IMG/VR virus record: IMGVR_UViG_3300033146_001875
Coordinates: 1 to 63,733 of that record
DNA: 63,733 nt
Source: a virus
Lineage: Duplodnaviria; Caudoviricetes
Direction: 5' to 3' (one strand)
A model generated the notes under the pieces. The model had not been told where the DNA came from, did not search any database, and was given only the letters and a program-made list of their open reading frames with translations. The translations under genes were made by a program, and so were the position numbers. Of this stretch, positions 333 to 63,733 are shown piece by piece (position 1 is the first letter of the stretch; each line of letters opens with the position of its first letter).

Positions 333-358
333 CCATCTACATATCTTAATGCAAAATT
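333..358 (+). promoter_or_regulatory. 26-bp repeat, copy 2
   Basis: Identical to 89-114; upstream of the AGGAG RBS of ORF 380. Confidence 0.55.
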
Positions 359-2289: not shown

Positions 2290-4128
2290 ATGATGAATAT
2301 AAATGAGATAATAGATGGTGGTTCAGTAGAGCTATGTAGTGTTGTATTAAACAAGATAGCAGATAGAGAGATAGATTATGTTCAAGAACTAATGGATTCT
2401 CTGCTGCATAATTATCTAGTTAAAGGTACAGATGGTTCTACATCTTTAACATATTGGCAAACAGTAGCTAGCCAAAAAGGCATAGAACTAGATAGATTTA
2501 ATGAATTATTGGCCCTGTTAGATAGAGAGGGGTATGTTACAACATCTGTTGTGCCTGCTCGTAACTGGGCAGAAATAAAGCTAAATGCTAGTGAGCTAAA
2601 AGACATAGAGCTCAGAAAGGAGTTCTTAATATCTAAACATATCATGAGACTTGACAATAGTGAAGCTATTGTTAATTTATCTAAATGGGGAAATACATTT
2701 AAAGATACTGGTTTAGCAAGAAGAGGTAGTGCTAAGGCTAGCAAAAATGCATTTGGTTTAGATTTCTCTACAGTTGATTATAGTGCTATATCTATGGAGG
2801 TGCTAACTAAGAATTTAGTTAAATCTATGGATAAGATGTTAAGCAAGAACGACAAGCTTGTATTGAAAGAGATTAATTATAAAGATTTAGCTATATCTAT
2901 ATTGAATATCTATATGCTAAATGGTCCTAAGACTCTATATAACTCTGAACAAAATATGCATGATAGTCGTGGTAGAGCTATCAAAAAAGTTATGAAAAGA
3001 GTATTTAATTATATCTCAAATAAAGATGCTAGAGCTATGCTTGTTATTCCTCAAAAAAGAAGAAAGCCTATGACCAAAGATGGAAACAAAAGAAGATATT
3101 TAGCTATAGCTGAACTGCTTGGCTTAAAAGAACCAACTCTCAAAGAGAAAATTTCGGCAGGCTGGAAAGCTTACCAACAACGGAAATTATTGGATTTAAA
3201 TCCTCAAGATGAACATGATAGAAGTGAATGGCATGTTAATATTTGGTTAGAAAGAATATACAGAGATCTGTATAGCTATGAACAAAATAAAGACTATAAA
3301 GCAGAATGTCCCATTGAGATAGATTGTACTGCTAGTATGCTTCAGGTACAAGGTGCTTTGTTTAATCACAAACCTTTCATAAGAGGTACCAATATGAATG
3401 TTGGCAAGAAAGGCAAGCTTAGAGATATGTGGCATCACAAACATATTAAAAGAGAACCATTCAAAACTGCTATGACTCAGATGTTGTATGGTTCTTCTAA
3501 GGGTGTTACTAAAATATGGAATGAAAAAGGTTTCAAAGTTAAAGATAAACAAATTCTATATTTTAATCAAGAAATTAGAGCTGGAAAGATGGCACTAGCT
3601 AATGAGTTTAAAAACTTTATTATAAAGAATGTTAATCCATCTGTTGTAATGAATCCAGTTATAAACGGAGAATCCTTTGAGGTTCAATGTAATAAGTTTA
3701 AAGATACTGCTGAGTTCTTGAAGCTACATAAGCTTTATGACTCTAAGACTGGTCTTATCAAGACTATACAACAGTCTAAAACAAAGAAAGTCCCAGACTT
3801 AAAGCAGTTTAATAGATTCTTTGTAACTTTGTTTATTCACAATCTGGATAGTCAAGTAGCTGATTATGTGTGTGATAGTAACTACTGGGTATTAGATATA
3901 TATGATGCATTTATATGTAATGCTGAGGATGCTGAGCCACTAGCTCAAAGACTATGCGAGAAGCTGGATACAATAAAAGACAATGGTCCTCAAATCATTG
4001 AAGAATATCTGAAGTCCATCTCAATAGATATTAAAGAGCCACATATGGCTAGAAAATGGAAAAGAGTTACCAGCAAAATTGAAGATGCTGGCAATAATTG
4101 GAGATGTCAAACTACTGCACTTAAATAA
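2290..4128 (+). CDS. T7-like single-subunit DNA-directed RNA polymerase (N4 RNAPII equivalent, unsplit)
   Basis: Motifs HDSRGR (DxxGR), EIDCTASMLQ (A), REPFKTAMTQMLYG (B), HNLDS, IYDAF (C). Confidence 0.93.
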   Translation: MMNINEIIDGGSVELCSVVLNKIADREIDYVQELMDSLLHNYLVKGTDGSTSLTYWQTVASQKGIELDRFNELLALLDREGYVTTSVVPARNWAEIKLNASELKDIELRKEFLISKHIMRLDNSEAIVNLSKWGNTFKDTGLARRGSAKASKNAFGLDFSTVDYSAISMEVLTKNLVKSMDKMLSKNDKLVLKEINYKDLAISILNIYMLNGPKTLYNSEQNMHDSRGRAIKKVMKRVFNYISNKDARAMLVIPQKRRKPMTKDGNKRRYLAIAELLGLKEPTLKEKISAGWKAYQQRKLLDLNPQDEHDRSEWHVNIWLERIYRDLYSYEQNKDYKAECPIEIDCTASMLQVQGALFNHKPFIRGTNMNVGKKGKLRDMWHHKHIKREPFKTAMTQMLYGSSKGVTKIWNEKGFKVKDKQILYFNQEIRAGKMALANEFKNFIIKNVNPSVVMNPVINGESFEVQCNKFKDTAEFLKLHKLYDSKTGLIKTIQQSKTKKVPDLKQFNRFFVTLFIHNLDSQVADYVCDSNYWVLDIYDAFICNAEDAEPLAQRLCEKLDTIKDNGPQIIEEYLKSISIDIKEPHMARKWKRVTSKIEDAGNNWRCQTTALK

Positions 4129-4163
4129 AAGTGTGGTGGTTCTGCCATCTCTATCGTTCCTTT

Positions 4164-4239
<76 letters not shown>

Positions 4240-4292
4240 CTTTGTTTTTGTATACTTTGAAAAAGATAGTAAATATATATAAAGGAAAAAAT

Positions 4293-4466
4293 ATGACTAT
4301 ACATGAAAAGATAAATATCAGATATACTTTGAGGTATCAACTTGAAGCAAAAAAATATATGGCACTTCATAAATATCAGTTATTGCTTATGTATGAGTGG
4401 TTCAATAACGAATGGAAAAATAGGACTTCTGTTCTATTGAGATTTATAGAGAACCATCATACATAG
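4293..4466 (+). CDS. 57-aa hypothetical protein (likely true start of track ORF 4131-4466)
   Basis: AAAGGA RBS before ATG 4293; the upstream extension is only the poly-T. Confidence 0.65.
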   Translation: MTIHEKINIRYTLRYQLEAKKYMALHKYQLLLMYEWFNNEWKNRTSVLLRFIENHHT

Positions 4467-4998
4467 GTAGTTCTTTATATATATATTGTTTTTTATTCCA
4501 TCGTGGAACAAATGGCAATATATATACTTCTTATATTGTGAGAAATATGAAGATAACAATCTCTCAAAGTAATGCAAATGAATAAATCCCAGTCACTATA
4601 ATTCTACTGTCTCTCACAGATATGGTTCTACTTATCGACTAGACAATACAAGCACTCTGTTGCTTAGGTTATATACTTATTCGCATTATTTTGAGAGGTC
4701 GTTTCACACTGTGATTCCTCAACTGTTTATATATAAAAATATATTAAGACTTTTCATCTTATTTCCTCTATTTGTTCATTTTTATATACACAGTGTGGCG
4801 ACTCTCACAAAACTCAAATTAGTTATAACTCTCCTGTTTTACTGAGCAAATCTAGCAGGAGAGTTATGCTATTTTTATATAAGATAATATGTATATTGTT
4901 TTATATAAAAATAGGGTATAAAGCCAAGGAGAAAATCAGAGGAGACATTAAGGTCTGGATGTCTGATTTTACATTAAAACAACATTAGGAGAGAATAC

Positions 4999-7736: not shown

Positions 7737-8228
7737 ATGAATGAGAAATACTGGAGAGATGGAAAGTGTCCATATTGTGGTTCTGAAGGACTATTCGAGA
7801 TAAGTGTTGAGAAGATATATCTAACAGAATATCATGAGTATCTTTGCAGTAGTTGTAAAGGTAGGTATACAGATAATTATGAGCCAACTAGAGTGATGAA
7901 CCCAGATGCAGACGATGAAGAATATTTTGATGTAGAGACAGATTATGGATCTTGTAAGAATGGAGGTTTTCTTGAACGGGTTTTAGCTATGGCTAGAAAA
8001 GTGATTAAGTTTGAGGTAGAAAATGGTAAATATTATATTACTGACCAAGAAGCTGAAGAAGAAAATTTTAGAATAAAACTTCGTAAAATAAAGAAAGAAT
8101 TTGAAAATAGTCTTGAAGAAGATGATTGTGTAGTAAAATTAGTTTTAATAAAAGTAAGAGATATTTTTGGTCAACATTTAACTAAGAATACATTACAAAA
8201 AATAATCGAGGAGATTGAAAATGTGTGA
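7737..8228 (+). CDS. Zn-ribbon hypothetical protein
   Basis: CPYC...CSSC. Confidence 0.75.
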   Translation: MNEKYWRDGKCPYCGSEGLFEISVEKIYLTEYHEYLCSSCKGRYTDNYEPTRVMNPDADDEEYFDVETDYGSCKNGGFLERVLAMARKVIKFEVENGKYYITDQEAEEENFRIKLRKIKKEFENSLEEDDCVVKLVLIKVRDIFGQHLTKNTLQKIIEEIENV

Positions 8229-14504: not shown

Positions 14505-15950
14505 ATGAAAAAAGAAAAAAAAATAGTTAAGAATTTTTTAGTAAAAAAGAAAGTAGTTGGACTGCTTGAGACTGATGGAATTTTCTTAAAATATGGCTCA
14601 ACTGGTCTTGGAGCAAATACAATGTTGTTTCAGGGCGATTCAGAACAGAATACACTATATAGAGGACATGACTCTGATAGTACGACATATTTTAGCTTGT
14701 CGGAAGAAGTGTTTGAGAAAGTAGATAAAAACACTTCTTCTGTACGAGATAATTTTGCTCACAAGAATATACTGTTTAATACCATGGTTGTAGCAAATCA
14801 TATTTTAGAAACAAGTATTTGTAAGGCATATTTTAAATACATAACAACTGATATATTATTGGTTCTAGTGCATAAAGAAGCTCCACAAATAGACTTTAGA
14901 AAAATAGACTATTTGTTAGAAGCTGGTAATCCAGTTCATGAATTTATTTCGTCGGATATATTATCTGACGAAATAAAAGAAATATATAGAATTATAGAAG
15001 ATATAAAGCACACTAGGGAGATTGACGAACCTGCTGGATATTCTGGTTGCGACTTCTTTAGTTATATTCCAGTTAAAAAAGGAGAAAAAACAGTAGCTAA
15101 AAGTAGCGAGTTGGCAGATTCGCTATCTAAACCTACTAGTGCAACAACAGATACTTCTGAAAAGGAAGATGATATAGAAACCATCTTAAGAGATACATTA
15201 GGGTCCATATCGACAAGCTATACAAACCCTAGTTATTCAGATGATAAAATGTGGTTTCGACATAAGAATACTTTGTCTAAAAAAGAGTATTTAAAAGTAG
15301 AACAGTATGCCAAGCAGATAGGTTCTAAGATGAAAGGTAGATTCGGTAAGGACAAAGTTTCATCACCCTCTAAGAAAATTCATACTAAGAATTTCATTAG
15401 AAGAGTACCTAATATATATGTAAAAAAAAGAGACATATCTAAGGGCAAGAAAATAAATTTGAATATTTTCATAGATGCCTCTGCTTCTATGAATGGAAAA
15501 CCTATGAAGAATGCAGTTTCTGTAGCACTGATATTTGAGATGATAGCTAACAAAGAAAAGACTATTACCGGAAACATAATATTGTCTGCTGGTGAGGGTT
15601 CCATGACTATAGAGTTTGGGAAAGGCAAGGAATCTCTATTAAACAAGCTTCAGGCTTTTAGTGGGGAAGAGGGCATTGAAAGAACCATCACTAACAATAT
15701 GAAAATTATGCAAAAAGCTGATTACAATATCTGTATTAGTGATGCAAACATAACCGATGACCCATTGAACAAAAAAAAATATGAAGCTAGAAATGTTTTT
15801 ATAGATGGTCTTTATATAAACAAAACAACATCTAGTAAAACAGAAAAAGAAAATACTGAACACATGGAAAAATATTTTTCGAGAGGTAAAGTTATAGATA
15901 CTTTAGAAAATGCCGTGGAATATATATCTAATGTTGTTTTGCAAAAATAA
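14505..15950 (+). CDS. VWA-domain protein (partner of the AAA ATPase)
   Basis: MIDAS motif IFIDASASM and downstream ISD; adjacent to a MoxR ATPase as in N4-like phages. Confidence 0.85.
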   Translation: MKKEKKIVKNFLVKKKVVGLLETDGIFLKYGSTGLGANTMLFQGDSEQNTLYRGHDSDSTTYFSLSEEVFEKVDKNTSSVRDNFAHKNILFNTMVVANHILETSICKAYFKYITTDILLVLVHKEAPQIDFRKIDYLLEAGNPVHEFISSDILSDEIKEIYRIIEDIKHTREIDEPAGYSGCDFFSYIPVKKGEKTVAKSSELADSLSKPTSATTDTSEKEDDIETILRDTLGSISTSYTNPSYSDDKMWFRHKNTLSKKEYLKVEQYAKQIGSKMKGRFGKDKVSSPSKKIHTKNFIRRVPNIYVKKRDISKGKKINLNIFIDASASMNGKPMKNAVSVALIFEMIANKEKTITGNIILSAGEGSMTIEFGKGKESLLNKLQAFSGEEGIERTITNNMKIMQKADYNICISDANITDDPLNKKKYEARNVFIDGLYINKTTSSKTEKENTEHMEKYFSRGKVIDTLENAVEYISNVVLQK

Positions 15951-17920: not shown

Positions 17921-18131
17921 CTATATAATAAATGTGAAAATAGGCAAAGAGGTTATGGTTGCTATATGGAACCATTGTAAACAAGATAATCATATTGTTA
18001 AATGCACTATAATTGGACATGAAGACAATATTTCTAGTAAAACAACTGATGTATTGGTTGAATACAAGAATGATGCTGGTGAGCATCGTAGGTGTATAAT
18101 AGAACCAATGAAAAAGGTGGTTGTTTTATAA
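17892..18131 (+). CDS. Hypothetical protein
   Basis: 79-aa ORF followed by a hairpin at about 18143-18185. Confidence 0.6.
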   Translation: MTSGIQTAFSYIINVKIGKEVMVAIWNHCKQDNHIVKCTIIGHEDNISSKTTDVLVEYKNDAGEHRRCIIEPMKKVVVL

Positions 18132-18323
18132 AAAGAATAACACAACCACTTACGAACCACCTTGGGGTGGATTCGCCGTGGTTGTTTAATGGAATGTGTA
18201 TTGAGGTATTATAAATGATATTTATAATATTTAAATATATTATTAAACGGAGTCGGGACCTACGACCGACAGTGGGGTAGGCTACTGAGCCAATGAACGG
18301 AGTGGAATTGGCGAGGTAGGTCT

Positions 18324-18407
18324 GTCTTTATTTATATAGTCTTTATTTACCTGCAGTCTATCACATGCAACCAGTTGCACCTCTACACCTGCAGCTAGTT
18401 GCACCTC
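18324..18407. promoter_or_regulatory. Iteron-like repeat array A (candidate replication origin or operator)
   Basis: 22-bp near-palindromic repeats at 18362-18383 and 18386-18407, a half copy at 18349-18356, and GTCTTTATTTA twice (18324-18334, 18339-18349). Confidence 0.7.
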
Positions 18408-18507: not shown

Positions 18508-18912
18508 ATGGTAATTCACAACATTCGTCCAGATAGAAATTTCACACAATTAGATAACAATGTTTTAAGATTGAAGAATATTCATTCTGGTGTAAAAGTA
18601 TTGTATTGCTTTATTGCATCACTTAAAAATGGTCAACGAATATCGAGAGAATATTTGGCTAAGAGTCTGGGGGTAAGTGTAAGAACAATCTCCACACAAA
18701 TTGGAGAATTAGAAAAAAGAAATCTACTTTTAGTAGATAGAGTTTCTGCTAAAGAATATGACTGCTACATTGGTACAAGCAAGCTTCCAGCTAGCAAAAC
18801 AAAGGAATATTGGGTTGATATAGAGTCATTAACTGAAACGATAACCGATGAAGAGCTTTTGCAAATGCAAAAAGAATATATAGATAAAATAAATAAAATG
18901 GAGAACAAATGA
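18508..18912 (+). CDS. Winged-HTH protein resembling the N-terminal domain of phage replication initiators (paralog A)
   Basis: NFTQLDNNVLR...KVLYCFIAS...SREYLAKSLGVSVRTISTQIGELEKRNLL. Confidence 0.82.
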   Translation: MVIHNIRPDRNFTQLDNNVLRLKNIHSGVKVLYCFIASLKNGQRISREYLAKSLGVSVRTISTQIGELEKRNLLLVDRVSAKEYDCYIGTSKLPASKTKEYWVDIESLTETITDEELLQMQKEYIDKINKMENK

Positions 18913-20162
18913 CAGAACATCAACGAGAAAAGTTTGATAATATAATGAGTCACTCAGATAAGATAGTGGCCCTATTTGGAGAAGGTGGAACTGGTAAAAC
19001 AGTTTCAGTAAGTAAGTTTATTCAATCGCTTGATGAAAATCAGATAGTAGCTTTGACAACTACTACACACCAAAGTTTAAGTGTTCTTAGGGACATGGTT
19101 CCATCACATCATAAATGTGATATAACAACATCTACAATACATAAATTCTTAGGCTTTAGAGTCAAAGATAATCAAGGTAAATCTACATTGCAAAGAAATC
19201 CGAAGCATGAAATTAGCTTTGTGGACTATCTAATAATAGATGAATCATCTTATTTAACTAAGCAGTTATTAGACTTTATAAAAGGCTCAGAAGTTGGATT
19301 TAGAGTGCGAAAGAAAATTATATTGGTAGGCGACAAAATGCAACTAACTATAGATGATTTTCTAAACTTAGATTCTATTTTTAGTGAAGAACTAACAGAG
19401 AACATGAGACAGAGTCGTGACTCTGATTTATATACCTTTTGTCATAGTCTAAGACACAGAATAGAGAACAAATTAGGGGTAGTACCTATTCCAGCAAATG
19501 GTAAAGATATTATAATGACATCGAACCATACAGCTTTTGTTAGTGAATACAAAAAAAACACTTCTAATAAATGTATATTAGCTTTTCTCAACTCTACTGT
19601 TAAAAGCTATAACAACAATATAAAAAAGAAGATGTTGAAAGAAGATACATATAGTATTGGAGACACTCTTGTTGTGATGGAACCAACATTCAAGAAACTA
19701 GCTAATGGTAGTAATTCTATTATATACAACAACAGAGAGAGAGTAGAAATACTTGGAATAGTTCAGGAGACAGATAGTGATACATTATTACTTGTTAAAA
19801 ATTCAAAAGAAATAGAGGCACAATTACTAGTCCCTAAGTCTAAGGCAGAATACAATCGAACATTAAAAAACTATGTAGATAAAAAAGACTGGAAGAACTA
19901 TTATGATTACAAAGAAGCAAGAAATTTTGTACATCATTCTTATGCCCTCACAGTACACTCAGCACAAGGTTCTACATTTGATGATGTCTTTATCGACCTA
20001 AGTGATTTTAACCCTCCTAATGACCCTGTAAGTGACAAGTTACTAAGAATGGTATATGTAGCCTTAACAAGAGCTAGAAAGAGAGTTTTTATATATCTAG
20101 GAGATGGAAAAAGAGACTACCAAGCTTTTGGTAAGACGGTAAATCTATTGGATGAGATGTAG
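18909..20162 (+). CDS. SF1B (Dda/RecD-like) DNA helicase
   Basis: GEGGTGKT, IIDES, VGDKMQL, NMRQ, YALTVHSAQGSTFD, YVALTRA. Confidence 0.95.
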   Translation: MTEHQREKFDNIMSHSDKIVALFGEGGTGKTVSVSKFIQSLDENQIVALTTTTHQSLSVLRDMVPSHHKCDITTSTIHKFLGFRVKDNQGKSTLQRNPKHEISFVDYLIIDESSYLTKQLLDFIKGSEVGFRVRKKIILVGDKMQLTIDDFLNLDSIFSEELTENMRQSRDSDLYTFCHSLRHRIENKLGVVPIPANGKDIIMTSNHTAFVSEYKKNTSNKCILAFLNSTVKSYNNNIKKKMLKEDTYSIGDTLVVMEPTFKKLANGSNSIIYNNRERVEILGIVQETDSDTLLLVKNSKEIEAQLLVPKSKAEYNRTLKNYVDKKDWKNYYDYKEARNFVHHSYALTVHSAQGSTFDDVFIDLSDFNPPNDPVSDKLLRMVYVALTRARKRVFIYLGDGKRDYQAFGKTVNLLDEM

Positions 20163-20425: not shown

Positions 20426-22648
20426 ATGTCTAAAATAAAACTAGATGACGACACGGAAGATATACCTATTGAATCCAAAGTGTCTGGAGAATTACATTAT
20501 ACTGATTTAGAGAATATGAAGTGGATGGATGTAATACTTAACATACTTAAAAATAAAGCTGGTTCTGAGCAAATGGACGACCATTTTTATGAAACACTTA
20601 TTAATAATAAAATAAGCCAAATAGCTACAAATATGAGAGTATGCTTTGAATTTTATGATGGTGGGATTATTCCAGCCAACATATATTCTTTTCTGCTAGC
20701 TACATCTGGCTCATCTAAAGGAAAGACTAACTCTACTTTGAAGAACTTGTTTTTCAAAGACTTTGAAGATAGTTTTATGACTATGCACCAAATAAGAGCC
20801 AAGCTCAATCTGGAACATATGGCAGAGGACAAATCAAGGCTAGAGGGTATGTCAGAAGAACAAGCATTAGACTATCTAACAAAAAGATTTAATTGCTTAC
20901 CTAACTTTATATTCACATATAATGATTCTACGGAGCCCGGATTTAAAGCCTTGAGAGAGAAGCTTACATTAAGTGGTTCAGGTGCCACAAATATAGAGCT
21001 TGATGAAATTGGCATTAATATGCATAAGATAAAAGAGTTTCTATCAGCAGTGCTTGAATGCTATGATGTTGGAGTCTTAAACCAAAAGCTAACCAAGACA
21101 GAATCTTCTAAGGATACAGCTAAAATACCAGCTACTTTCTTAGCTTTTGGCACTGGTTCTACATTGCTTGATGGTGGAGAGATGGAAAAAGATTTTATGA
21201 GCATTTTAAGACAAGGCTTAGCTAGGAGATGTACTTTTTCATATACTGAGAATATAAAAGATACTGAAGACGATGAAGAGTTTGACCCAATGAAAATATT
21301 ACTGAGAGCTAAGTCGTCTGAGGATTCAAAAGACTCTCTTAGAATAATGAATAAATTTAAACTACTATCAGAACCAAAACTGTTTGATAAAGTTATACTG
21401 GTTCCAGATGCCATATGGGCAAAAGTATTAGAATATCAAAGAGACTGCAATAAAGAAGTATCTAAGCTATCTGAGTTTGAAGATCTAGTTATGCTAAACA
21501 TAAAGCATTCTTACTGGACTTTATCTAAGATAATGTCAGTATATGCCTTTATGGATGGCAAAGATTATGTAGAACAGATACATTTTGATAGAGCATTAAA
21601 GTATGTAAAACATTCTATAATAGACTTCAAAAAGATGGTTCGTAGGAAATCTAATTTTGAAAGAGTTGCATTGTTTATATGTACAGCAAAAAGAGAATTA
21701 ACATTATTCGACTTTACGGAGTCTATGCCATTCTACAAAAATGCCACAAAGCAAAGCAAGATGGAAATGTTGGAATTAGCACAAGCTTATGCTGCCACAC
21801 ACAATATGCTTATACAGCATAAGATAAAGGAGGGTATTATATATTACACTGGTTCTATGCTAGAAGAAGTGGACTTAAATCAAATCAAGTTATCTATGTC
21901 ATCACATATAACTGAAAATTTTGTTCCTTTATCTGGAAAATGGGATGACTTGTATAATATTCCTTGTTCTAATACAAATTATTCTATTCATCATTTTATA
22001 GATAACTACAGAAAAGGTAGCAATGCTATTGCTGGGTTTAATATAGTTGTTTTAGATATAGATGATGGTACTGATTTAGATACAGCTAAGGCTATATTAA
22101 AAGAATCTAAGTATCTTATTACTACTACTCGAAATCACAATAAGGAGAAAAATGGCAAGATAAGAGATAGGTTTAGAATCTTTCTTCCAATGACAGTTGA
22201 ACTTAAACTGAATGAATTAGATTTTAAAGCTTTTATGACAAATGTTATGGAAGATTTTCCAATAGAAGTCGATGAAGCTTGTAAGGATATTGCAAGATTT
22301 TATTTCGGTCATGCTGGTGCAGATTATGCATATAATGATGGTTCTTTATTTGATCCAGCTGACTATATACCCAATACAGAACCGAATAAGAAGAGAATAA
22401 AATTCAATTCAGAACTTGGAGATATAGGCAGTTTGGAAAAATGGTTCTTAAAACGAATGGCAAGTGGAAACAGAAATGATATGCTTATTAAATTCGCTCT
22501 AGCTCTAGTTGATGCAGATAAAGAGTATGAAGAAATTGAATCTCGTTGTATGACATTAAATAGCAGGCTAGAAGATCCAATTTCTCAAAAAGAGATTTCA
22601 TCTACTATCTTATCTACGGTAAGAAAAAAACTATATGGAGGTAAATAA
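20426..22648 (+). CDS. N4 gp43-type DNA primase (N-terminal P-loop domain, C-terminal AEP and PriCT)
   Basis: ATSGSSKGKT; AEP motifs VLDIDDG, TTRNH, RFRIFLP, VDEACKD; PriCT GNRNDML. Confidence 0.88.
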   Translation: MSKIKLDDDTEDIPIESKVSGELHYTDLENMKWMDVILNILKNKAGSEQMDDHFYETLINNKISQIATNMRVCFEFYDGGIIPANIYSFLLATSGSSKGKTNSTLKNLFFKDFEDSFMTMHQIRAKLNLEHMAEDKSRLEGMSEEQALDYLTKRFNCLPNFIFTYNDSTEPGFKALREKLTLSGSGATNIELDEIGINMHKIKEFLSAVLECYDVGVLNQKLTKTESSKDTAKIPATFLAFGTGSTLLDGGEMEKDFMSILRQGLARRCTFSYTENIKDTEDDEEFDPMKILLRAKSSEDSKDSLRIMNKFKLLSEPKLFDKVILVPDAIWAKVLEYQRDCNKEVSKLSEFEDLVMLNIKHSYWTLSKIMSVYAFMDGKDYVEQIHFDRALKYVKHSIIDFKKMVRRKSNFERVALFICTAKRELTLFDFTESMPFYKNATKQSKMEMLELAQAYAATHNMLIQHKIKEGIIYYTGSMLEEVDLNQIKLSMSSHITENFVPLSGKWDDLYNIPCSNTNYSIHHFIDNYRKGSNAIAGFNIVVLDIDDGTDLDTAKAILKESKYLITTTRNHNKEKNGKIRDRFRIFLPMTVELKLNELDFKAFMTNVMEDFPIEVDEACKDIARFYFGHAGADYAYNDGSLFDPADYIPNTEPNKKRIKFNSELGDIGSLEKWFLKRMASGNRNDMLIKFALALVDADKEYEEIESRCMTLNSRLEDPISQKEISSTILSTVRKKLYGGK

Positions 22649-59134: not shown

Positions 59135-61798
59135 TTAAAAATCCTCTGAAAATATATCTCTTGCATTGTCATCTGCATTAGAACCAAATACTATATTATC
59201 ATATCTAGTTGGTTCTGTCACATCAAATAATCCATCGACTGGATAAACTATATCTAAATCTATTAAACAGCTTATGGTGTCTATAACATCATCATGACGA
59301 GATGTTATCTTCTTGGAAGTTATACTAGATAGTTCATCTTTCGTCTCTTCCTTAAACACCTTATCTAAGCTATTGCTAAATGCTATTCTGTTTAATTTAA
59401 ATTCAGGTAACACATCCAGAAACCTACCAAATTTTTTATTCGTTGGTCTTATCTCTTGTATAGCAAAGTAAATAGATTCTTCAATCTTTCTCTCTTTAAT
59501 CCAACTAACAAAACCTTTCTGTTGTCCAGTCACTTCTATAGTCACAGTGAATGGTTTGTATTTTTTCACCAATGAAAACAAGTCTTTTATATTTTCTGAC
59601 ATTAGTTGCTTCTTACATATGCCATCTACTAATATCTTCTTTCTATCTTTATCTACAGCCCATACACTTATTACTGAGAAGTCAGCAGTAGCTTTCTCAC
59701 TTGTTGCAAAGTCTGTGCATATATAATAATTGTATTCTTTTCTTTTACCTTGTTCAAAATCAAGAAATACAATCTCATCAGCTTTAAGTAGCCTGTCATC
59801 TTCTGAAGCAATTTGTAGCATCATCTCTTGATAAAAAGAATCTAGTTTACCAGTCTTTTTAGCTTTTATGTACTGCTTAATTACAAAGTCATAACCAAAT
59901 CTATCTTCCCAAGAACCACGGAACTCTTCTTTTCTGCATGGAAATTTCTCACATACTGGAAATACATTTGCATACCATGCTCCAGATTCAACAGCTTTGT
60001 ATAAGGGGTCGCTAGCATTAAATGGAGTTCCCGACCATATAGTTTTTCTTCTGGTTGGATGCAAAGCATAGTCTATAGCTTTATATACTGTGTCTTCAAC
60101 CGACGAGATGACGGTATCAGATCTGGCATCTTCATCAGATATTAAATCATCAAGTATGGCTAGATATGGTCTTTGACCCATCTCTTTAGCACCACGAACA
60201 CCAGTATTGTGTGTTCTAAAATATTCATTTGATATAAATTGATGCTCATCATTATCAACAGCAATACACTGACTAGGTTCTGCCTCTATCTTATCTATAC
60301 TAACAATAGCCACAAGCTCTTTGGTTCTCTTCTTAAACCTAGCAGCTTTTCTTTTGAGTTTGAATGGATTATAGTTTATCCAAAGTTCTACCCTAAATAC
60401 TTTCTTGTTCATATTCTGCTTCTTTGCTGTTCCACCAAGGCTTCTTGTCAAACTAGATACATCATCAATAAGTCCCTTAGAGTTTGAAATAAACGATATT
60501 CTACCTCGCTTACTAGTAGTACCATTAATATCAAGTAAGCCAGATAGCAAATCAAGCCTTTGCTTTATTGAACCAAACATATATATATTTGGTATTCTTT
60601 TAAGGTCTCTATGTTTGACAATATCTAAGTCTCTAGCTATTTGTGAGATTTTTTTAATGCTTATTGATTCTGCAGTTCCATTTCTTTTATCTATATACGG
60701 AGTGCCTAGCTGATATGGAATCTTAGTTTTATAGAAAGCCATATCATCTATATGGGCATTAAGTACACAACTATCGTTTTTCTTCATAGAACCATCTCCT
60801 AGAAGCAATCCAAGAGTGTATGGGTCTAGTGGAAACTCTTTCTTAGAATAGACTAAAGGCTTGCAATTTTCAATAAACAGTAACCTATCGTTAGATACAC
60901 AATCAGGTCTATCCTGCTGTTCTCTTATTGTTGTGTGGAAGAGTTTTTCTTTTACTAGCTCATGTGTATAGAGGTCTCTTTTGACATATTTTGCCTTGTT
61001 GTTATAATCGACTTTTTGAACAACACTGTTGATATGTTCATCACTAACTTTGAGTTCTCTTCCATCTTCTAATACTATTTTGTACATATCTCTATGAAAT
61101 ACTTCACTCTTCTTAGTGATGGTAGTTAGTTTTCCGTCTGCACCAAATATTTTATCGCCGATACTACATTCTTCTATTGTGGTTATGCCGTCTTGTGTAT
61201 AGAGTATACTATCTAAACTAAGAGCTTTTGCTCCATACCCTTTGAATACAGTCGTCACTCCATTGAGGTTTACAAACTCCCATCTAGTATCAGTGAATCT
61301 AGCTTTAGGTACATATTTTTTTAAAAAGTCTGAATTGTTCCATCTAAATTCAAGATTCTTTCTCATATTTTTAACACCATTTTCAATACTGTCTGAAACA
61401 TATATCCCTAATGGTATCTTGCCAAAGCCTGATATTTTGTTATAGAGAGCTAGATACAATATTAAATATTCTCCAAACACAGCAGTCTTTGCTCCACCAC
61501 GATGAACCATATTTACTATATTCTCTTTAGAGCCATCTATCTTGTCCAACATCTTATAATGAAGAGAGGGAGTCTTATGTTCTTCTCCAGTAGAACCATT
61601 GACAAGCTTTATAAATACAACAAATTCCATAGCAAATTCAGATGGGGTGTATGTTGGGTCATTTGTATATTTAACCTCTCTTAACCATTCTTCAACAGTC
61701 TTTTTCTCTGCACTTGCTACACCTCTCGATCTATCAAGAGCCTTTATGTAGTCTTCTAAGTAATCATCTAGTTCACTTTGGATTATAGTATCACTCAT
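59135..61798 (-). CDS. terL: Terminase large subunit (N4 gp68 family) with intein
   Basis: HRGGAKT, GVRG...RPYLAILDDL, GTPFNASDPLY, TDFATSE...DFS, HDDVID. Confidence 0.95.
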   Translation of the reverse strand: MSDTIIQSELDDYLEDYIKALDRSRGVASAEKKTVEEWLREVKYTNDPTYTPSEFAMEFVVFIKLVNGSTGEEHKTPSLHYKMLDKIDGSKENIVNMVHRGGAKTAVFGEYLILYLALYNKISGFGKIPLGIYVSDSIENGVKNMRKNLEFRWNNSDFLKKYVPKARFTDTRWEFVNLNGVTTVFKGYGAKALSLDSILYTQDGITTIEECSIGDKIFGADGKLTTITKKSEVFHRDMYKIVLEDGRELKVSDEHINSVVQKVDYNNKAKYVKRDLYTHELVKEKLFHTTIREQQDRPDCVSNDRLLFIENCKPLVYSKKEFPLDPYTLGLLLGDGSMKKNDSCVLNAHIDDMAFYKTKIPYQLGTPYIDKRNGTAESISIKKISQIARDLDIVKHRDLKRIPNIYMFGSIKQRLDLLSGLLDINGTTSKRGRISFISNSKGLIDDVSSLTRSLGGTAKKQNMNKKVFRVELWINYNPFKLKRKAARFKKRTKELVAIVSIDKIEAEPSQCIAVDNDEHQFISNEYFRTHNTGVRGAKEMGQRPYLAILDDLISDEDARSDTVISSVEDTVYKAIDYALHPTRRKTIWSGTPFNASDPLYKAVESGAWYANVFPVCEKFPCRKEEFRGSWEDRFGYDFVIKQYIKAKKTGKLDSFYQEMMLQIASEDDRLLKADEIVFLDFEQGKRKEYNYYICTDFATSEKATADFSVISVWAVDKDRKKILVDGICKKQLMSENIKDLFSLVKKYKPFTVTIEVTGQQKGFVSWIKERKIEESIYFAIQEIRPTNKKFGRFLDVLPEFKLNRIAFSNSLDKVFKEETKDELSSITSKKITSRHDDVIDTISCLIDLDIVYPVDGLFDVTEPTRYDNIVFGSNADDNARDIFSEDF
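60206..61225 (-). mobile_element. 340-aa intein with LAGLIDADG homing endonuclease
   Basis: Starts ALSLDS, ends QCIAVD...RTHN before Thr+1; LGLLLGDG and LSGLLDING; removal restores GYGAK-TGVRG. Confidence 0.93.
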
Positions 61799-62489
61799 CT
61801 TCTATCTCAGCTTCTATAAATAGCTTCTTTTCTGCTATATCTTTTAGTGTTATACCACTCTCTAAAGCTTTCATTTCTGCTTGAACCAAGTCCGTTGTAG
61901 CTCTTCTTAAATCCTGTATCATATCAATGGAGCTTTCAGACATTTCATGTTGTAAAACTATCTTATTTTCATTTGGGTCTTTTAAGTGAGTCAATATCAT
62001 ATTTGCACTTTCCATATTAACTCTATGTCCAGCTGACACATCTGTTGACTTGTCTATGAGCACATTGAGTGCATCCACTTTAGCTTTGTTAAATAAGAGT
62101 CTTAATGGTATTTCAGACTGTGTTATTATATTTTGTACTAGCTTGTTTCTGTGATACAACACACTAGCTGACTGCATTGTACTCTCTGCTTTGCCCTCAG
62201 ATAATCTTCTCGCTAGTATCTCTGGAAATGTTTTCTCATAAGCATTTTGCACTGTATCACCAGCAGATAAGTATGTTACAAATTTAACCGCACTTAGATA
62301 TTGTTTCATCGTGTATCTACCATTAGCTAATACAGAACCATAATGTATAAAGTTATCTATAAATTCACCAGAATGAAAACTATCTGAGCCATCTATTTCA
62401 TTTATAACATCTACAAGTTCTTGTGTTATCATTTTCTTTCTCTTGCTAGGCATTAAGTTAGCAAGTTCATCTCTTGTTATGTTCGACAT
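61791..62489 (-). CDS. N4 gp69-like protein (putative terminase small subunit)
   Basis: YLSAVKFVTY, AYEKTFP, NKLVQNI, LTHLKDP; upstream of TerL. Confidence 0.8.
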   Translation of the reverse strand: MSNITRDELANLMPSKRKKMITQELVDVINEIDGSDSFHSGEFIDNFIHYGSVLANGRYTMKQYLSAVKFVTYLSAGDTVQNAYEKTFPEILARRLSEGKAESTMQSASVLYHRNKLVQNIITQSEIPLRLLFNKAKVDALNVLIDKSTDVSAGHRVNMESANMILTHLKDPNENKIVLQHEMSESSIDMIQDLRRATTDLVQAEMKALESGITLKDIAEKKLFIEAEIEDE

Positions 62490-62506
62490 ATCATCACACT
62501 CCTATT

Positions 62507-62695
62507 TTATATTATTTCCATAGCTTCTATGCTTGGAGCTGGTCTATAAAAGAAACTCTCTACTACTTCTGTTTCAATAGCATATATATCTTCAGTCCAA
62601 TACATAGCTGCTTCTTTTATGATGTCTATTTCTTCTTCACAATAACACCAATTAGGAAGCCAAGCTTCCTCTACTATAGTATTTTTTATTAATAT
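62507..62695 (-). CDS. Possible 62-aa acidic protein with ATA start
   Basis: AAGGA RBS and an open frame (LIKNTIVEEAWLPNW...) filling the gap; non-canonical start. Confidence 0.4.
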   Translation of the reverse strand: MLIKNTIVEEAWLPNWCYCEEEIDIIKEAAMYWTEDIYAIETEVVESFFYRPAPSIEAMEII

Positions 62696-62881
62696 GTGTT
62701 ATCCTTTCATGTGAGGAAGCCATAGTTTAATAATTTTTTTCCAATATAAAATTACTATTTTTTATTATTTTGTTTTTTTTCAATATGCCATAATTGATTT
62801 TTTCTTTAATGAGGTGTTCTTTTTCCTTAAGGTTTCAAAACGAACCGACATTTATTTTTTCTTATGGCTTCCTCTACTTAT

Positions 62882-63217
62882 CTACTGCTCAACTCTTTCT
62901 AAATCATCCCAATGCTTTTTTACTTCAGAAGCTTTAAAAGAACTGTTCCCTATATATAAAAAATAAGTTGAACGATCTATTTTCTCAACAAGTAATAAAC
63001 CAGCTTCTATTAAGTCTCTTTTAGCTCTAGCAACCTTGTCTCTTTGCCAACCTAAACAAGTAGCTACATATTCGTCATTTAGCTGAAATCCATTTTTGTA
63101 TCCAGCTACAAAACAATAATATCTAAAGCTGTAGTCTTTTATTTCCTTATTCCTTGCAACATTATTGTCTATCTTACTATACTTTGAATTAGCAAGAACC
63201 TTTCTTAAAATAGCCAT
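62882..63217 (-). CDS. Winged-HTH protein, paralog B of 18508-18912
   Basis: Aligns end to end with paralog A (DNNV.R, YCF.A..KNG, EY.A..LG, LLLV, YIG.S...AS..K..W); AGGGG RBS; TGGTACAAT at 63247-63255. Confidence 0.85.
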   Translation of the reverse strand: MAILRKVLANSKYSKIDNNVARNKEIKDYSFRYYCFVAGYKNGFQLNDEYVATCLGWQRDKVARAKRDLIEAGLLLVEKIDRSTYFLYIGNSSFKASEVKKHWDDLERVEQ

Positions 63218-63305
63218 TATAACCCCTATATTAAATTTATTCGCATATTGTACCACAAAACAGAACCATGTCAATAATATATATACCAAACCCCTAAAAG
63301 ACTGA

Positions 63306-63395
63306 GTGTATGAAATATACGACATATAGATGTACTAAAAATACGACATTGGGTGTATGAAATATACGACACTAATAAAGACACTTATATATTAA
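63306..63395. promoter_or_regulatory. Iteron-like repeat array B (candidate origin or operator)
   Basis: GTGTATGAAATATACGACA at 63306-63324 and 63353-63371, a degenerate copy at 63330-63348, then AATAAAGAC and an AT-rich run. Confidence 0.7.
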
Positions 63396-63619
63396 TGACG
63401 GAACCCCCGTAAAACCCGTGTTCTCTGAACTCCCCCTAACCAGTCCCTCGGCACAGGTGCCTTCGGTCTGTATTCGGCATTTTAAGCATACTACAAGACC
63501 TTAATATATTTCACTAAGGTATTTTATCGTTTTAGATATTTAAAGAGCTTCTATGTGCTTCAAAATGAGTATTGTATAAAGATGGGGGAATATATGTTTA
63601 TAAATGAAGTGAAAGTGAA

Positions 63620-63733
63620 AAAGTAAAAAAAGTTTTGAAAATATTTTTTTTTATTTATTGAGGTAGTACTTACTATACCATAGTAACACTCATTGGGGGT
63701 TCCCCCCCCATCTACATATCTTAATGCAAAATT
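63620..63733. repeat. Terminal direct repeat or overlap (right copy)
   Basis: Identical to 1-114. Confidence 0.95.

Follow-up and report, generated by a model that had tools for sequence, protein, structure and literature searches.

Why should a phage genome carry two small genes of one winged-helix family, each behind a set of repeats that belongs to it alone? The question is raised by the viral record IMGVR_UViG_3300033146_001875, which was analysed over its whole length of 63,733 bases (unique length 63,619) and is referred to below as the window; judging from its gene content, it is the complete genome of an N4-type phage (Schitoviridae). One of the genes with its repeats, module B, lies close to the right end of the window, and the other, module A, lies in the replication operon. 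A first-pass annotation, made from the sequence alone, had described the two as a duplicated cassette with co-diverged protein and site, giving two orthogonal origins or switches in a phage that lacks a DNA polymerase. We tentatively propose, with somewhat less than even confidence, that the modules are replication-origin recognition cassettes of the phage. The proposal is built on the similarity of both proteins to the DNA-binding domains of replication initiators, on the layout of the sites beside a conserved A/T-rich motif and on the recurrence of this layout, with other site sequences, in related phages.

Protein B is a stand-alone winged-helix protein of 111 amino acids (aa), encoded on the minus strand at 62885..63217 with its stop codon at 62882-62884. 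The open reading frame (ORF) listed for it is longer (62882-63325, minus strand, 147 aa), but all 23 relatives of B (23/23) use the internal MAI start, and B is therefore taken to have 111 aa. Protein A, a member of the same family, has 134 aa and is encoded on the plus strand at 18508..18912 (coding 18508-18909); its stop codon overlaps the start codon of a helicase gene (ATGA), a layout that would allow translational coupling. An ungapped alignment of the two proteins spans 109 residues (E 2e-21) with 32% identity, which is close to the family average. The stretches WQRDKVARAKRDL and VSVRTISTQIGEL, which had been quoted as differing recognition helices, align with one another and fall in the part of A that matches HTH_36 (residues 27-74). 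This Pfam domain (PF13730) was found in A with 39.4 bits against a gathering cut-off of 25 (E 5e-10). B gave no Pfam match at E 0.01; PF13730 is precomputed for two of its orthologs, P0019 and P0024. Among the PHROGs, B matched phrog_186 (E 4.6e-6) and phrog_270 (E 4.7e-4), in the N-terminal parts of a DnaD-like loader and a replication initiation protein, and A matched O-like and replication-initiation families; the domain-level initiator matches of A and B are weak (E 1e-5 to 1e-7). B shares 59-69% identity with its 23 relatives, with 29 invariant columns, and A has one close relative only (68% identity).

The repeats of module B lie at 63303-63324, 63327-63348 and 63350-63371, with spacings of 24 and 23, and are 19-22 nucleotides (nt) long. 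Read on the minus strand, the gene-distal site 1 (63353..63371) adjoins the conserved motif, the middle site 2 (63330..63348) is degenerate with 73% identity over 22 nt, and the gene-proximal site 3 (63306..63324) has a 19-nt core identical to that of site 1. No chance matches are expected for the exact 19-mer common to the outer sites. The nearest repeat is 86-89 nt from the ATG of B (63217); the counterpart in module A is 100 nt. Two nt from site 1 follows the A/T-rich motif (63374..63382, minus strand), which reads GTCTTTATT on the strand of the B gene and AATAAAGAC, followed by TATATA, on the window strand; it is a candidate unwinding element, though in a genome of 68% A+T its composition is unexceptional. 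On the other side of the array, a putative sigma70-type promoter of B (63247..63274, minus strand) has the form TTGACA-16-TACAAT with TG upstream and 11/12 consensus matches, and the B sites end 31 nt upstream of its -35 element. The sites of module A (18362..18407, plus strand) comprise two 22-nt repeats (18362-18383 and 18386-18407) with a spacing of 24, each with a palindromic core, and a half-site at 18349-18356, so that full copies number two rather than three. Module A has two copies of GTCTTTATT, at 18324-18332 and 18339-18347 (plus strand).

Much of what the first-pass annotation had described is confirmed by these coordinates: a 111-aa protein that aligns throughout with A and differs from it in the quoted helix stretches, three B repeats with a period of 23-24 bp that differ from those of A, and a motif followed by TATATA beside the repeats. 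The modules are indeed inverted, and they bracket about 18.6 kb on the circular map. The statement that both have the same geometry holds for the distance from ATG to repeats, but A has only two full repeats and a half-site. There are indeed two self-contained cassettes, each of a site array and a winged-helix gene. The sequences of the A-type and B-type sites are unrelated, and within the window each type is confined to its own module; this distribution also means that there is no regulon.

Each module is flanked by a GC-rich block, at 63396..63482 in B (53-62% GC) and at 18246..18325 in A; in 40-nt windows the flanking blocks reach 53-62% GC against about 32% for the genome. They had been called GC-rich hairpins, of which the base composition stood and the folding did not: compared with dinucleotide shuffles neither block showed excess folding (z +0.19 and +0.61 for B, -1.77 and -0.74 for A). 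The blocks have no similarity to each other, nor was a similar sequence seen in the other DNA compared. A structured RNA was considered here and rejected, since the Rfam scan of the whole window gave no match at the gathering score, there was no tRNA and folding was not in excess; at E 1, Rfam returned two chance-level rows for the intergenic region of B and none for that of A. A strong hairpin does lie at 18132-18195 (plus strand; z -4.0 against shuffles), directly after an ORF ending at 18131; probably it is a terminator dividing an exonuclease unit from module A.

Is this layout peculiar to the window? No match was found when the DNA of the B region (62700-63733) was compared with a phage collection, and searches for close relatives in IMG/VR, by the TerS-like protein alone and by the B alignment, and in GTDB genome contigs, by the B alignment, found none. 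Five metagenome loci were recovered by way of B relatives, however, and 11 IMG/VR loci with family sub-alignments. In the loci L001-L004 the order is always a CTTTATTAG-type motif (in L003 the variant TATATAGG), three dyad sites of about 19 nt with spacings of 27 and 24-25, a promoter-like element and the gene. Three pseudo-palindromic sites of about 19 nt, spaced at 23-27 bp, are present in the window, in L001-L004 and in the IMG/VR locus L056, and in five of these six (the window, L001, L002, L004 and L056) the outer two are identical. The motif adjoins site 1 in L001, L002, L004, L006 and L063 as well. The site sequences are different in every phage compared. The junction of array and motif is fixed at 0-2 nt and the distance from array to promoter varies, from about 0-8 to 31 nt, which ties the sites to the motif and not to the promoter. 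The promoter-like element of L002 reads TTGACA-17-TATAAT. In L001 (2516-2536) and L056 (about 7920-7945) TTGACA stands only 7-9 nt before TACAAT or TATAAT, a spacing unfit for sigma70.

The locus L001 deserves closer attention. Its gene order is exonuclease, small ORF, three sites, a B-type winged-helix gene, Dda-like helicase, primase, Sak4 and SSB, and the winged-helix gene occupies the slot that A has in the window. In both loci, the window (A) and L001, the winged-helix stop overlaps the helicase start and the primase follows. The winged-helix protein of L001 is 63% identical to B and its primase only 35% identical to that of the window, which implies that the cassette is better conserved than its surroundings or has been exchanged between phages. 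The Dda-like helicase gene of L001 (2894-4518) is interrupted by an ORF for an HNH endonuclease (3791-4300), after which comes an ORF of 74 aa (4294-4518).

The only cultured phage found with a member of the family is Alteromonas phage vB_AemP_PT15-A5 (OP481051.1, our locus L006). Its gp87 and gp88, annotated as 'HTH DNA binding domain protein' (tblastn identity 37.5% to B and 41.8% to A), lie at the end of the record and are divergent from the early genes; TerS/TerL follow them immediately, at the record start. They are tandem, overlapping genes of the family (L006 6001-6655; OP481051.1 73130-73784), of which gp88 has diverged strongly and forms a long branch in the family tree. Upstream of them GTCTTTATTA occurs twice and is followed by repeats 25 bp apart. 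These are its only two occurrences in the 75-kb genome, and because they sit at the module only, the motif is not a general promoter. The same possibility had been considered for the window, where GTCTTTATT has six matches against 1.72 expected, three of them in the two modules and three inside genes, and was rejected.

By profile search of 1.84 billion representatives, the family comprises at least 359 clusters at 50% identity, 94 of them at E 1e-10 or better; it has no PHROG of its own. In the IMG/VR loci TerS/TerL lie downstream on the same strand in 9/11, about 3 nt to 7 kb away, or in 7 when L054/L055 and L060/L061, which are near-identical pairs, each count as one locus. L053 has TerS/TerL on the opposite strand, and the contig of L056 stops before them. 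In L058 and L059 the winged-helix gene is at most about 30 nt from TerS. B likewise lies upstream of TerS/TerL and divergent from the early genes. From these positions we take B to be the ordinary copy, at the usual place of the family in N4-like phages, and A to be the unusual one, placed before helicase and primase. B is not an unusual extra copy. Between B and the TerS-like gene the window has about 395 bases (62490-62884) with no minus-strand ORF of 40 aa or more, and within this gap lies a terminator-like hairpin (62670-62654). Given the hairpin and the ORF-free gap, B may form a transcription unit of its own.

It would be natural to suppose that A and B arose by duplication within this phage, as the first-pass annotation did. 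The comparisons speak against it: B is 59-69% identical to proteins of other phages, A and B only 32% to each other. In a family tree of 116 rows A groups with P0026 and P0051, and B with 13 close relatives in a different large clade. Forcing A and B to be sisters costs 112 log-likelihood units (approximately unbiased (AU) test, p 0.005). The tree was a quick search on a short alignment with many unresolved forks, and the clade for the AU test was chosen after the tree had been seen, so that the test is supporting evidence and not a formal one. As far as these sequences tell, A and B are not a recent or local duplication.

What, then, could such a cassette do? The homology of the proteins, the site architecture and its conservation and the orthogonality of the site sequences are features of the DNA itself; from them we infer that the protein binds the repeats, that opening of the DNA takes place at the motif and that this is where replication begins. 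In the mechanism that we envisage, a small winged-helix protein of the dimer type would bind an array of its own sites directly 5' of its gene, the array, with sites at intervals of about 24 bp of which the outer two are identical and the middle one is weaker, lying beside the conserved A/T-rich motif. Filling of the three sites would produce a bent nucleoprotein complex, and the motif would be the place of DNA opening or of recruitment of the Dda-like helicase and the primase. Module B would then be the right-end copy that is normal in N4-like phages, before TerS/TerL, and module A a second copy of unrelated specificity directly before helicase and primase, so that the phage might possess two orthogonal initiation sites.

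The origin reading is suggested by the initiator-domain homology, the helicase/primase context and the fixed junction of array and motif. When 110 family members were scanned, 71 matched phrog_186, 54 phrog_4221 and 43 phrog_270; further matches were to phrog_428 (24/110), the O-like phrog_678 (14/110) and phrog_19047, named 'transcriptional regulator' (9/110). Its matches are confined almost entirely to one domain, the N-terminal DNA-binding one of phage replication initiators or DnaD-like loaders. Among the longer relatives scanned (n=10), two have an added DnaB_2 domain and one a weak match to Phage_rep_O. The winged-helix domain is related to those of known initiators, with a similarity at the level of the domain only. 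Origin recognition in viruses is often carried out by winged-helix domains attached to helicases (Kazlauskas et al., PMC4889955). The B array has what is expected of iterons, at least three direct repeats about two helical turns apart; its relatives have three copies at 24-27, and A has two and a half-site. Moreover, the cassette stands at differing genome positions in the relatives, which fits a position-independent unit.

A good deal weighs on the other side. Proteins A and B (111-134 aa) have no second domain that could recruit a helicase, so nothing in them provides for helicase loading, and the sole hint of a link to the helicase is the overlap of the A stop with the helicase start. With few exceptions the close members of the family stand alone and measure 105-170 aa. 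The gene belongs, in most N4-like contigs, to the late TerS/TerL operon, as its first gene or within it, and not to the replication operon, and none of 45 N4-like primase loci (0/45) had a family member in the DNA examined around the primase. The right-end 8 kb of coliphage N4 have none either; it follows from these absences that the family is not a general requirement of N4-type replication. The sequence search of the PDB gave no significant match, the best being MarR-type regulators (E 0.012), with staphylococcal RepA_N initiators at E 0.065-0.094. The window contains three DnaA boxes against 4.8 expected, none of them near either module. In 7/11 IMG/VR loci (L053, L054, L055, L057, L060, L061 and L062) the gene lies within an operon, and neither motif nor repeats were seen in the upstream DNA examined. 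The cis layout is not universal across the family.

A different explanation could be that the protein is a transcription factor at the head of an operon, which binds the three sites by its own promoter and governs expression both of its own gene and of the operon, TerS/TerL for B and helicase-primase for A; the cassette would be a portable unit of promoter, operator and regulator. We regard this as possible, though doubtful. It would account for sites directly upstream of near-consensus sigma70-type promoters (those of B and L002), for a gene that comes first in the transcription unit wherever sites are present and for a small stand-alone winged helix of the kind that many regulators are. The nine family members that match a PHROG named transcriptional regulator point the same way, as do the best PDB matches, which are MarR-type repressors though not significant. 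A simple repressor is nevertheless unlikely, because no site overlaps a -35 or -10 element, and an activator is not obviously needed where promoters are already near consensus. It is also the distance from site to motif that is conserved and not that from site to promoter, and the homology points to initiator domains. Strong divergence of specificity among close relatives, finally, is typical of self-recognition in replication or packaging and less expected of a private autoregulator.

Self-recognition in packaging leads to a further idea, a specificity element like cosB/Nu1 of lambda, in which the protein, bound to three sites that adjoin a conserved motif for cutting or recognition near the genome end, would hand the DNA to TerS/TerL. 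Module B, about 250-350 bp from the terminal redundancy of the contig, is well placed for this, and B, gp87/gp88 of PT15-A5 and the genes of 9/11 IMG/VR loci (7 non-redundant) stand upstream of TerS/TerL on the same strand, with a distance to TerS of at most about 30 nt in L058 and L059. A conserved nuclease with a variable adaptor would likewise go well with a conserved motif and variable sites next to it. Module A and the B-type module of L001 do not fit, being inside a replication operon with a stop codon overlapping the helicase start, and two cut sites would split the genome. TerS/TerL are on the opposite strand in L053, and neither Pfam nor PHROG gave a match to families of the terminase small subunit or of Nu1; on balance we think a packaging role improbable. 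That module B is a degenerating or functionless remnant, with repeats due to chance or recent slippage, we hardly credit at all. Its ORF is unbroken, 23 relatives share 59-69% identity with it and 29 columns never vary, the exact 19-mer pair has an expectation of zero, and five further loci repeat the arrangement of three sites with identical outer copies, in different sequences.

Returning to origin recognition, does the cassette make up for the polymerase that the phage seems to lack? No DNA polymerase was found in the window by tblastn with that of PT15-A5 (E limit 1e-3), a search that very divergent forms could escape, nor a homolog of RNAPII (gp15/gp16-type), the two-subunit RNA polymerase (RNAP), with RNAP1/RNAP2 of PT15-A5 (E limit 0.01). 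A scan of 30 ORFs of the window likewise gave no N4-type DNA polymerase or RNAPII subunit. The PT15-A5 polymerase query matched 18 IMG/VR loci, to which neither the window nor L001 belongs. The module is not a polymerase substitute, since PT15-A5 and two IMG/VR contigs (L009/L062 and L051/L056) carry it together with an N4-type DNA polymerase. For the family as a whole, the proposed tie between module and missing polymerase therefore fails. The first-pass annotation had itself named relatives with the modules and a normal polymerase, together with a start of replication elsewhere, as evidence to its disadvantage, and the first half of this is seen; what still speaks for it is that only two loci, both polymerase-less (the window and L001), have the replication-operon copy and that the 45 other primase loci have none, an association of two loci that is too small for a conclusion. 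One could imagine that a polymerase-less N4-like lineage (window and L001) placed a cassette of initiator and sites before helicase-primase to recruit the host replisome, and that the window has kept the ancestral right-end cassette as well. It would then have two orthogonal origins, or an origin and a fork barrier or terminus-proximal site, and a conserved phage protein would read the GTCTTTATTAG-type motif as a common site for loading or priming. We offer this as a speculation that is unlikely to be right in full.

The assignment to the Schitoviridae derives from a gene set comprising giant virion RNAP, N4-type primase, SSB, TerS/TerL, portal and the N4 gene order, all of which the window has. 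Its GC content is about 32%, and genes are on the plus strand up to about 27.6 kb and on the minus strand for the remainder. An ORF of 4195 aa matches the virion RNAP of PT15-A5 (E 3e-32) and the portal matches that of the same phage (E 5e-76). The Dda-like SF1 helicase whose start overlaps the stop of A lies at 18909..20162 (plus strand; phrog_325, E 4.5e-70), followed by the N4-type primase at 20426..22648 (plus strand; phrog_2135, E 7e-176; C-terminal Pfam PriCT_1); SSB (phrog_743) and Sak4 were also found. Downstream of B lies the TerS-like protein of the N4 gp69 type (61791..62489, minus strand; phrog_2109), which in related loci hit the same stretches as did the annotated TerS of PT15-A5. 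The large terminase (59135..61798, minus strand, 887 aa) has 47.7% identity to Vibrio N4-like phages. Relatives align with it only at residues of about 32-191 and 515-853, which indicates an insertion of about 320 aa. The boundary residues of the insertion look intein-like by eye; Pfam found Terminase_6C in this protein and no intein or homing-endonuclease domain.

Bases 1-114 of the window are identical to 63620-63733. Either this terminal redundancy of 114 bases is a direct terminal repeat, or the assembly of a circular or concatemeric map overlaps there. An exact 26-mer occurs at 89-114 and 333-358 (plus strand) where the early region starts, each copy shortly 5' of a small ORF and the first preceded by a G5TTC8 run. 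These copies are candidates for early promoters of the virion RNAP; the early promoters of N4 are described in PMC4496689, and background on N4 transcription in PMC4496689 and PMC7145618. Two large ORFs are without a family match, 14505-15950 (481 aa) and 2290-4128 (612 aa, only PHROGs of unknown function). A DNA sequencing run that shared 5% of sampled words with the window had only pieces of 36-84 nt, mostly less than 90% alike, and none over module B; no RNA run was found.

A limited search of full-text literature found nothing on the start of replication or origin positions of N4-like phages, or on the winged-helix family, and the cassette is apparently undescribed in these phages. It offers a concrete and testable candidate for an origin, with a fixed cis layout and a cultured representative in PT15-A5 on Alteromonas. 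Should it prove to be an origin unit, the origins of many uncultured N4-like genomes would be marked by it, and orthogonal pairs of initiator and site would be seen to pass between lytic phages. As a regulator or a packaging adaptor it would still be a new conserved control element at the junction of late and early genes.

Among the closest known systems is PT15-A5: its family genes have the position of B, divergent from the early genes and before TerS/TerL, with the motif followed by repeats. Unlike the window, that phage has two tandem genes at one place, an N4-type DNA polymerase and RNAPII subunits. The O protein of lambda has a winged-helix origin-binding domain and ori-lambda has four dyad sites of about 19 nt, inside the gene and beside an A/T-rich stretch. 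The likeness extends to the winged-helix domain, the dyad sites of about 19 nt with a period of just over two turns, the A/T-rich neighbour and a specificity that varies among related phages. Here, however, the protein is a DNA-binding domain only (111-134 aa), without the C-terminal recruiting domain, and the sites are upstream of the gene and number three, not four. Lambda offers another parallel in Nu1/cosB, where three sites lie directly before the gene of a winged-helix protein, with the terminase genes next to it, near the genome end. Module B resembles this in its three sites 5' of a winged-helix gene near the genome end and in a specificity that diverges among relatives, but no homology to Nu1 was detected and the modules A and L001 are away from terminase.

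For two modules in one phage, Bacillus phage SPP1 provides a comparison. Its G38P has two binding regions, oriL and oriR, one of them in the replication region, the other in the late one, and the phage uses its own helicase and host polymerases; oriR has been proposed as a fork barrier or terminus-proximal site. That two regions to which its origin-binding protein binds occur in this one phage is described in PMC3485210. The window similarly has two separate regions, one for replication and one late, but where SPP1 has one protein for both, it has two that are 32% identical, each with unrelated sites. In iteron and multi-replicon plasmids the Rep gene has iterons upstream, and orthogonal cassettes can coexist in one molecule. 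In the modules too, an A/T-rich element comes first, then direct repeats with a period of about 22-24 bp, the promoter and the gene for the binding protein. They differ from such plasmids in that sites and promoter do not overlap, that there are three sites only, that the carrier is a lytic phage and that no significant similarity to Rep proteins was found. Judging from the sequences compared here, we regard the cassette as a real, conserved cis/trans unit of N4-like phages and a variant of the initiator-plus-iteron theme.

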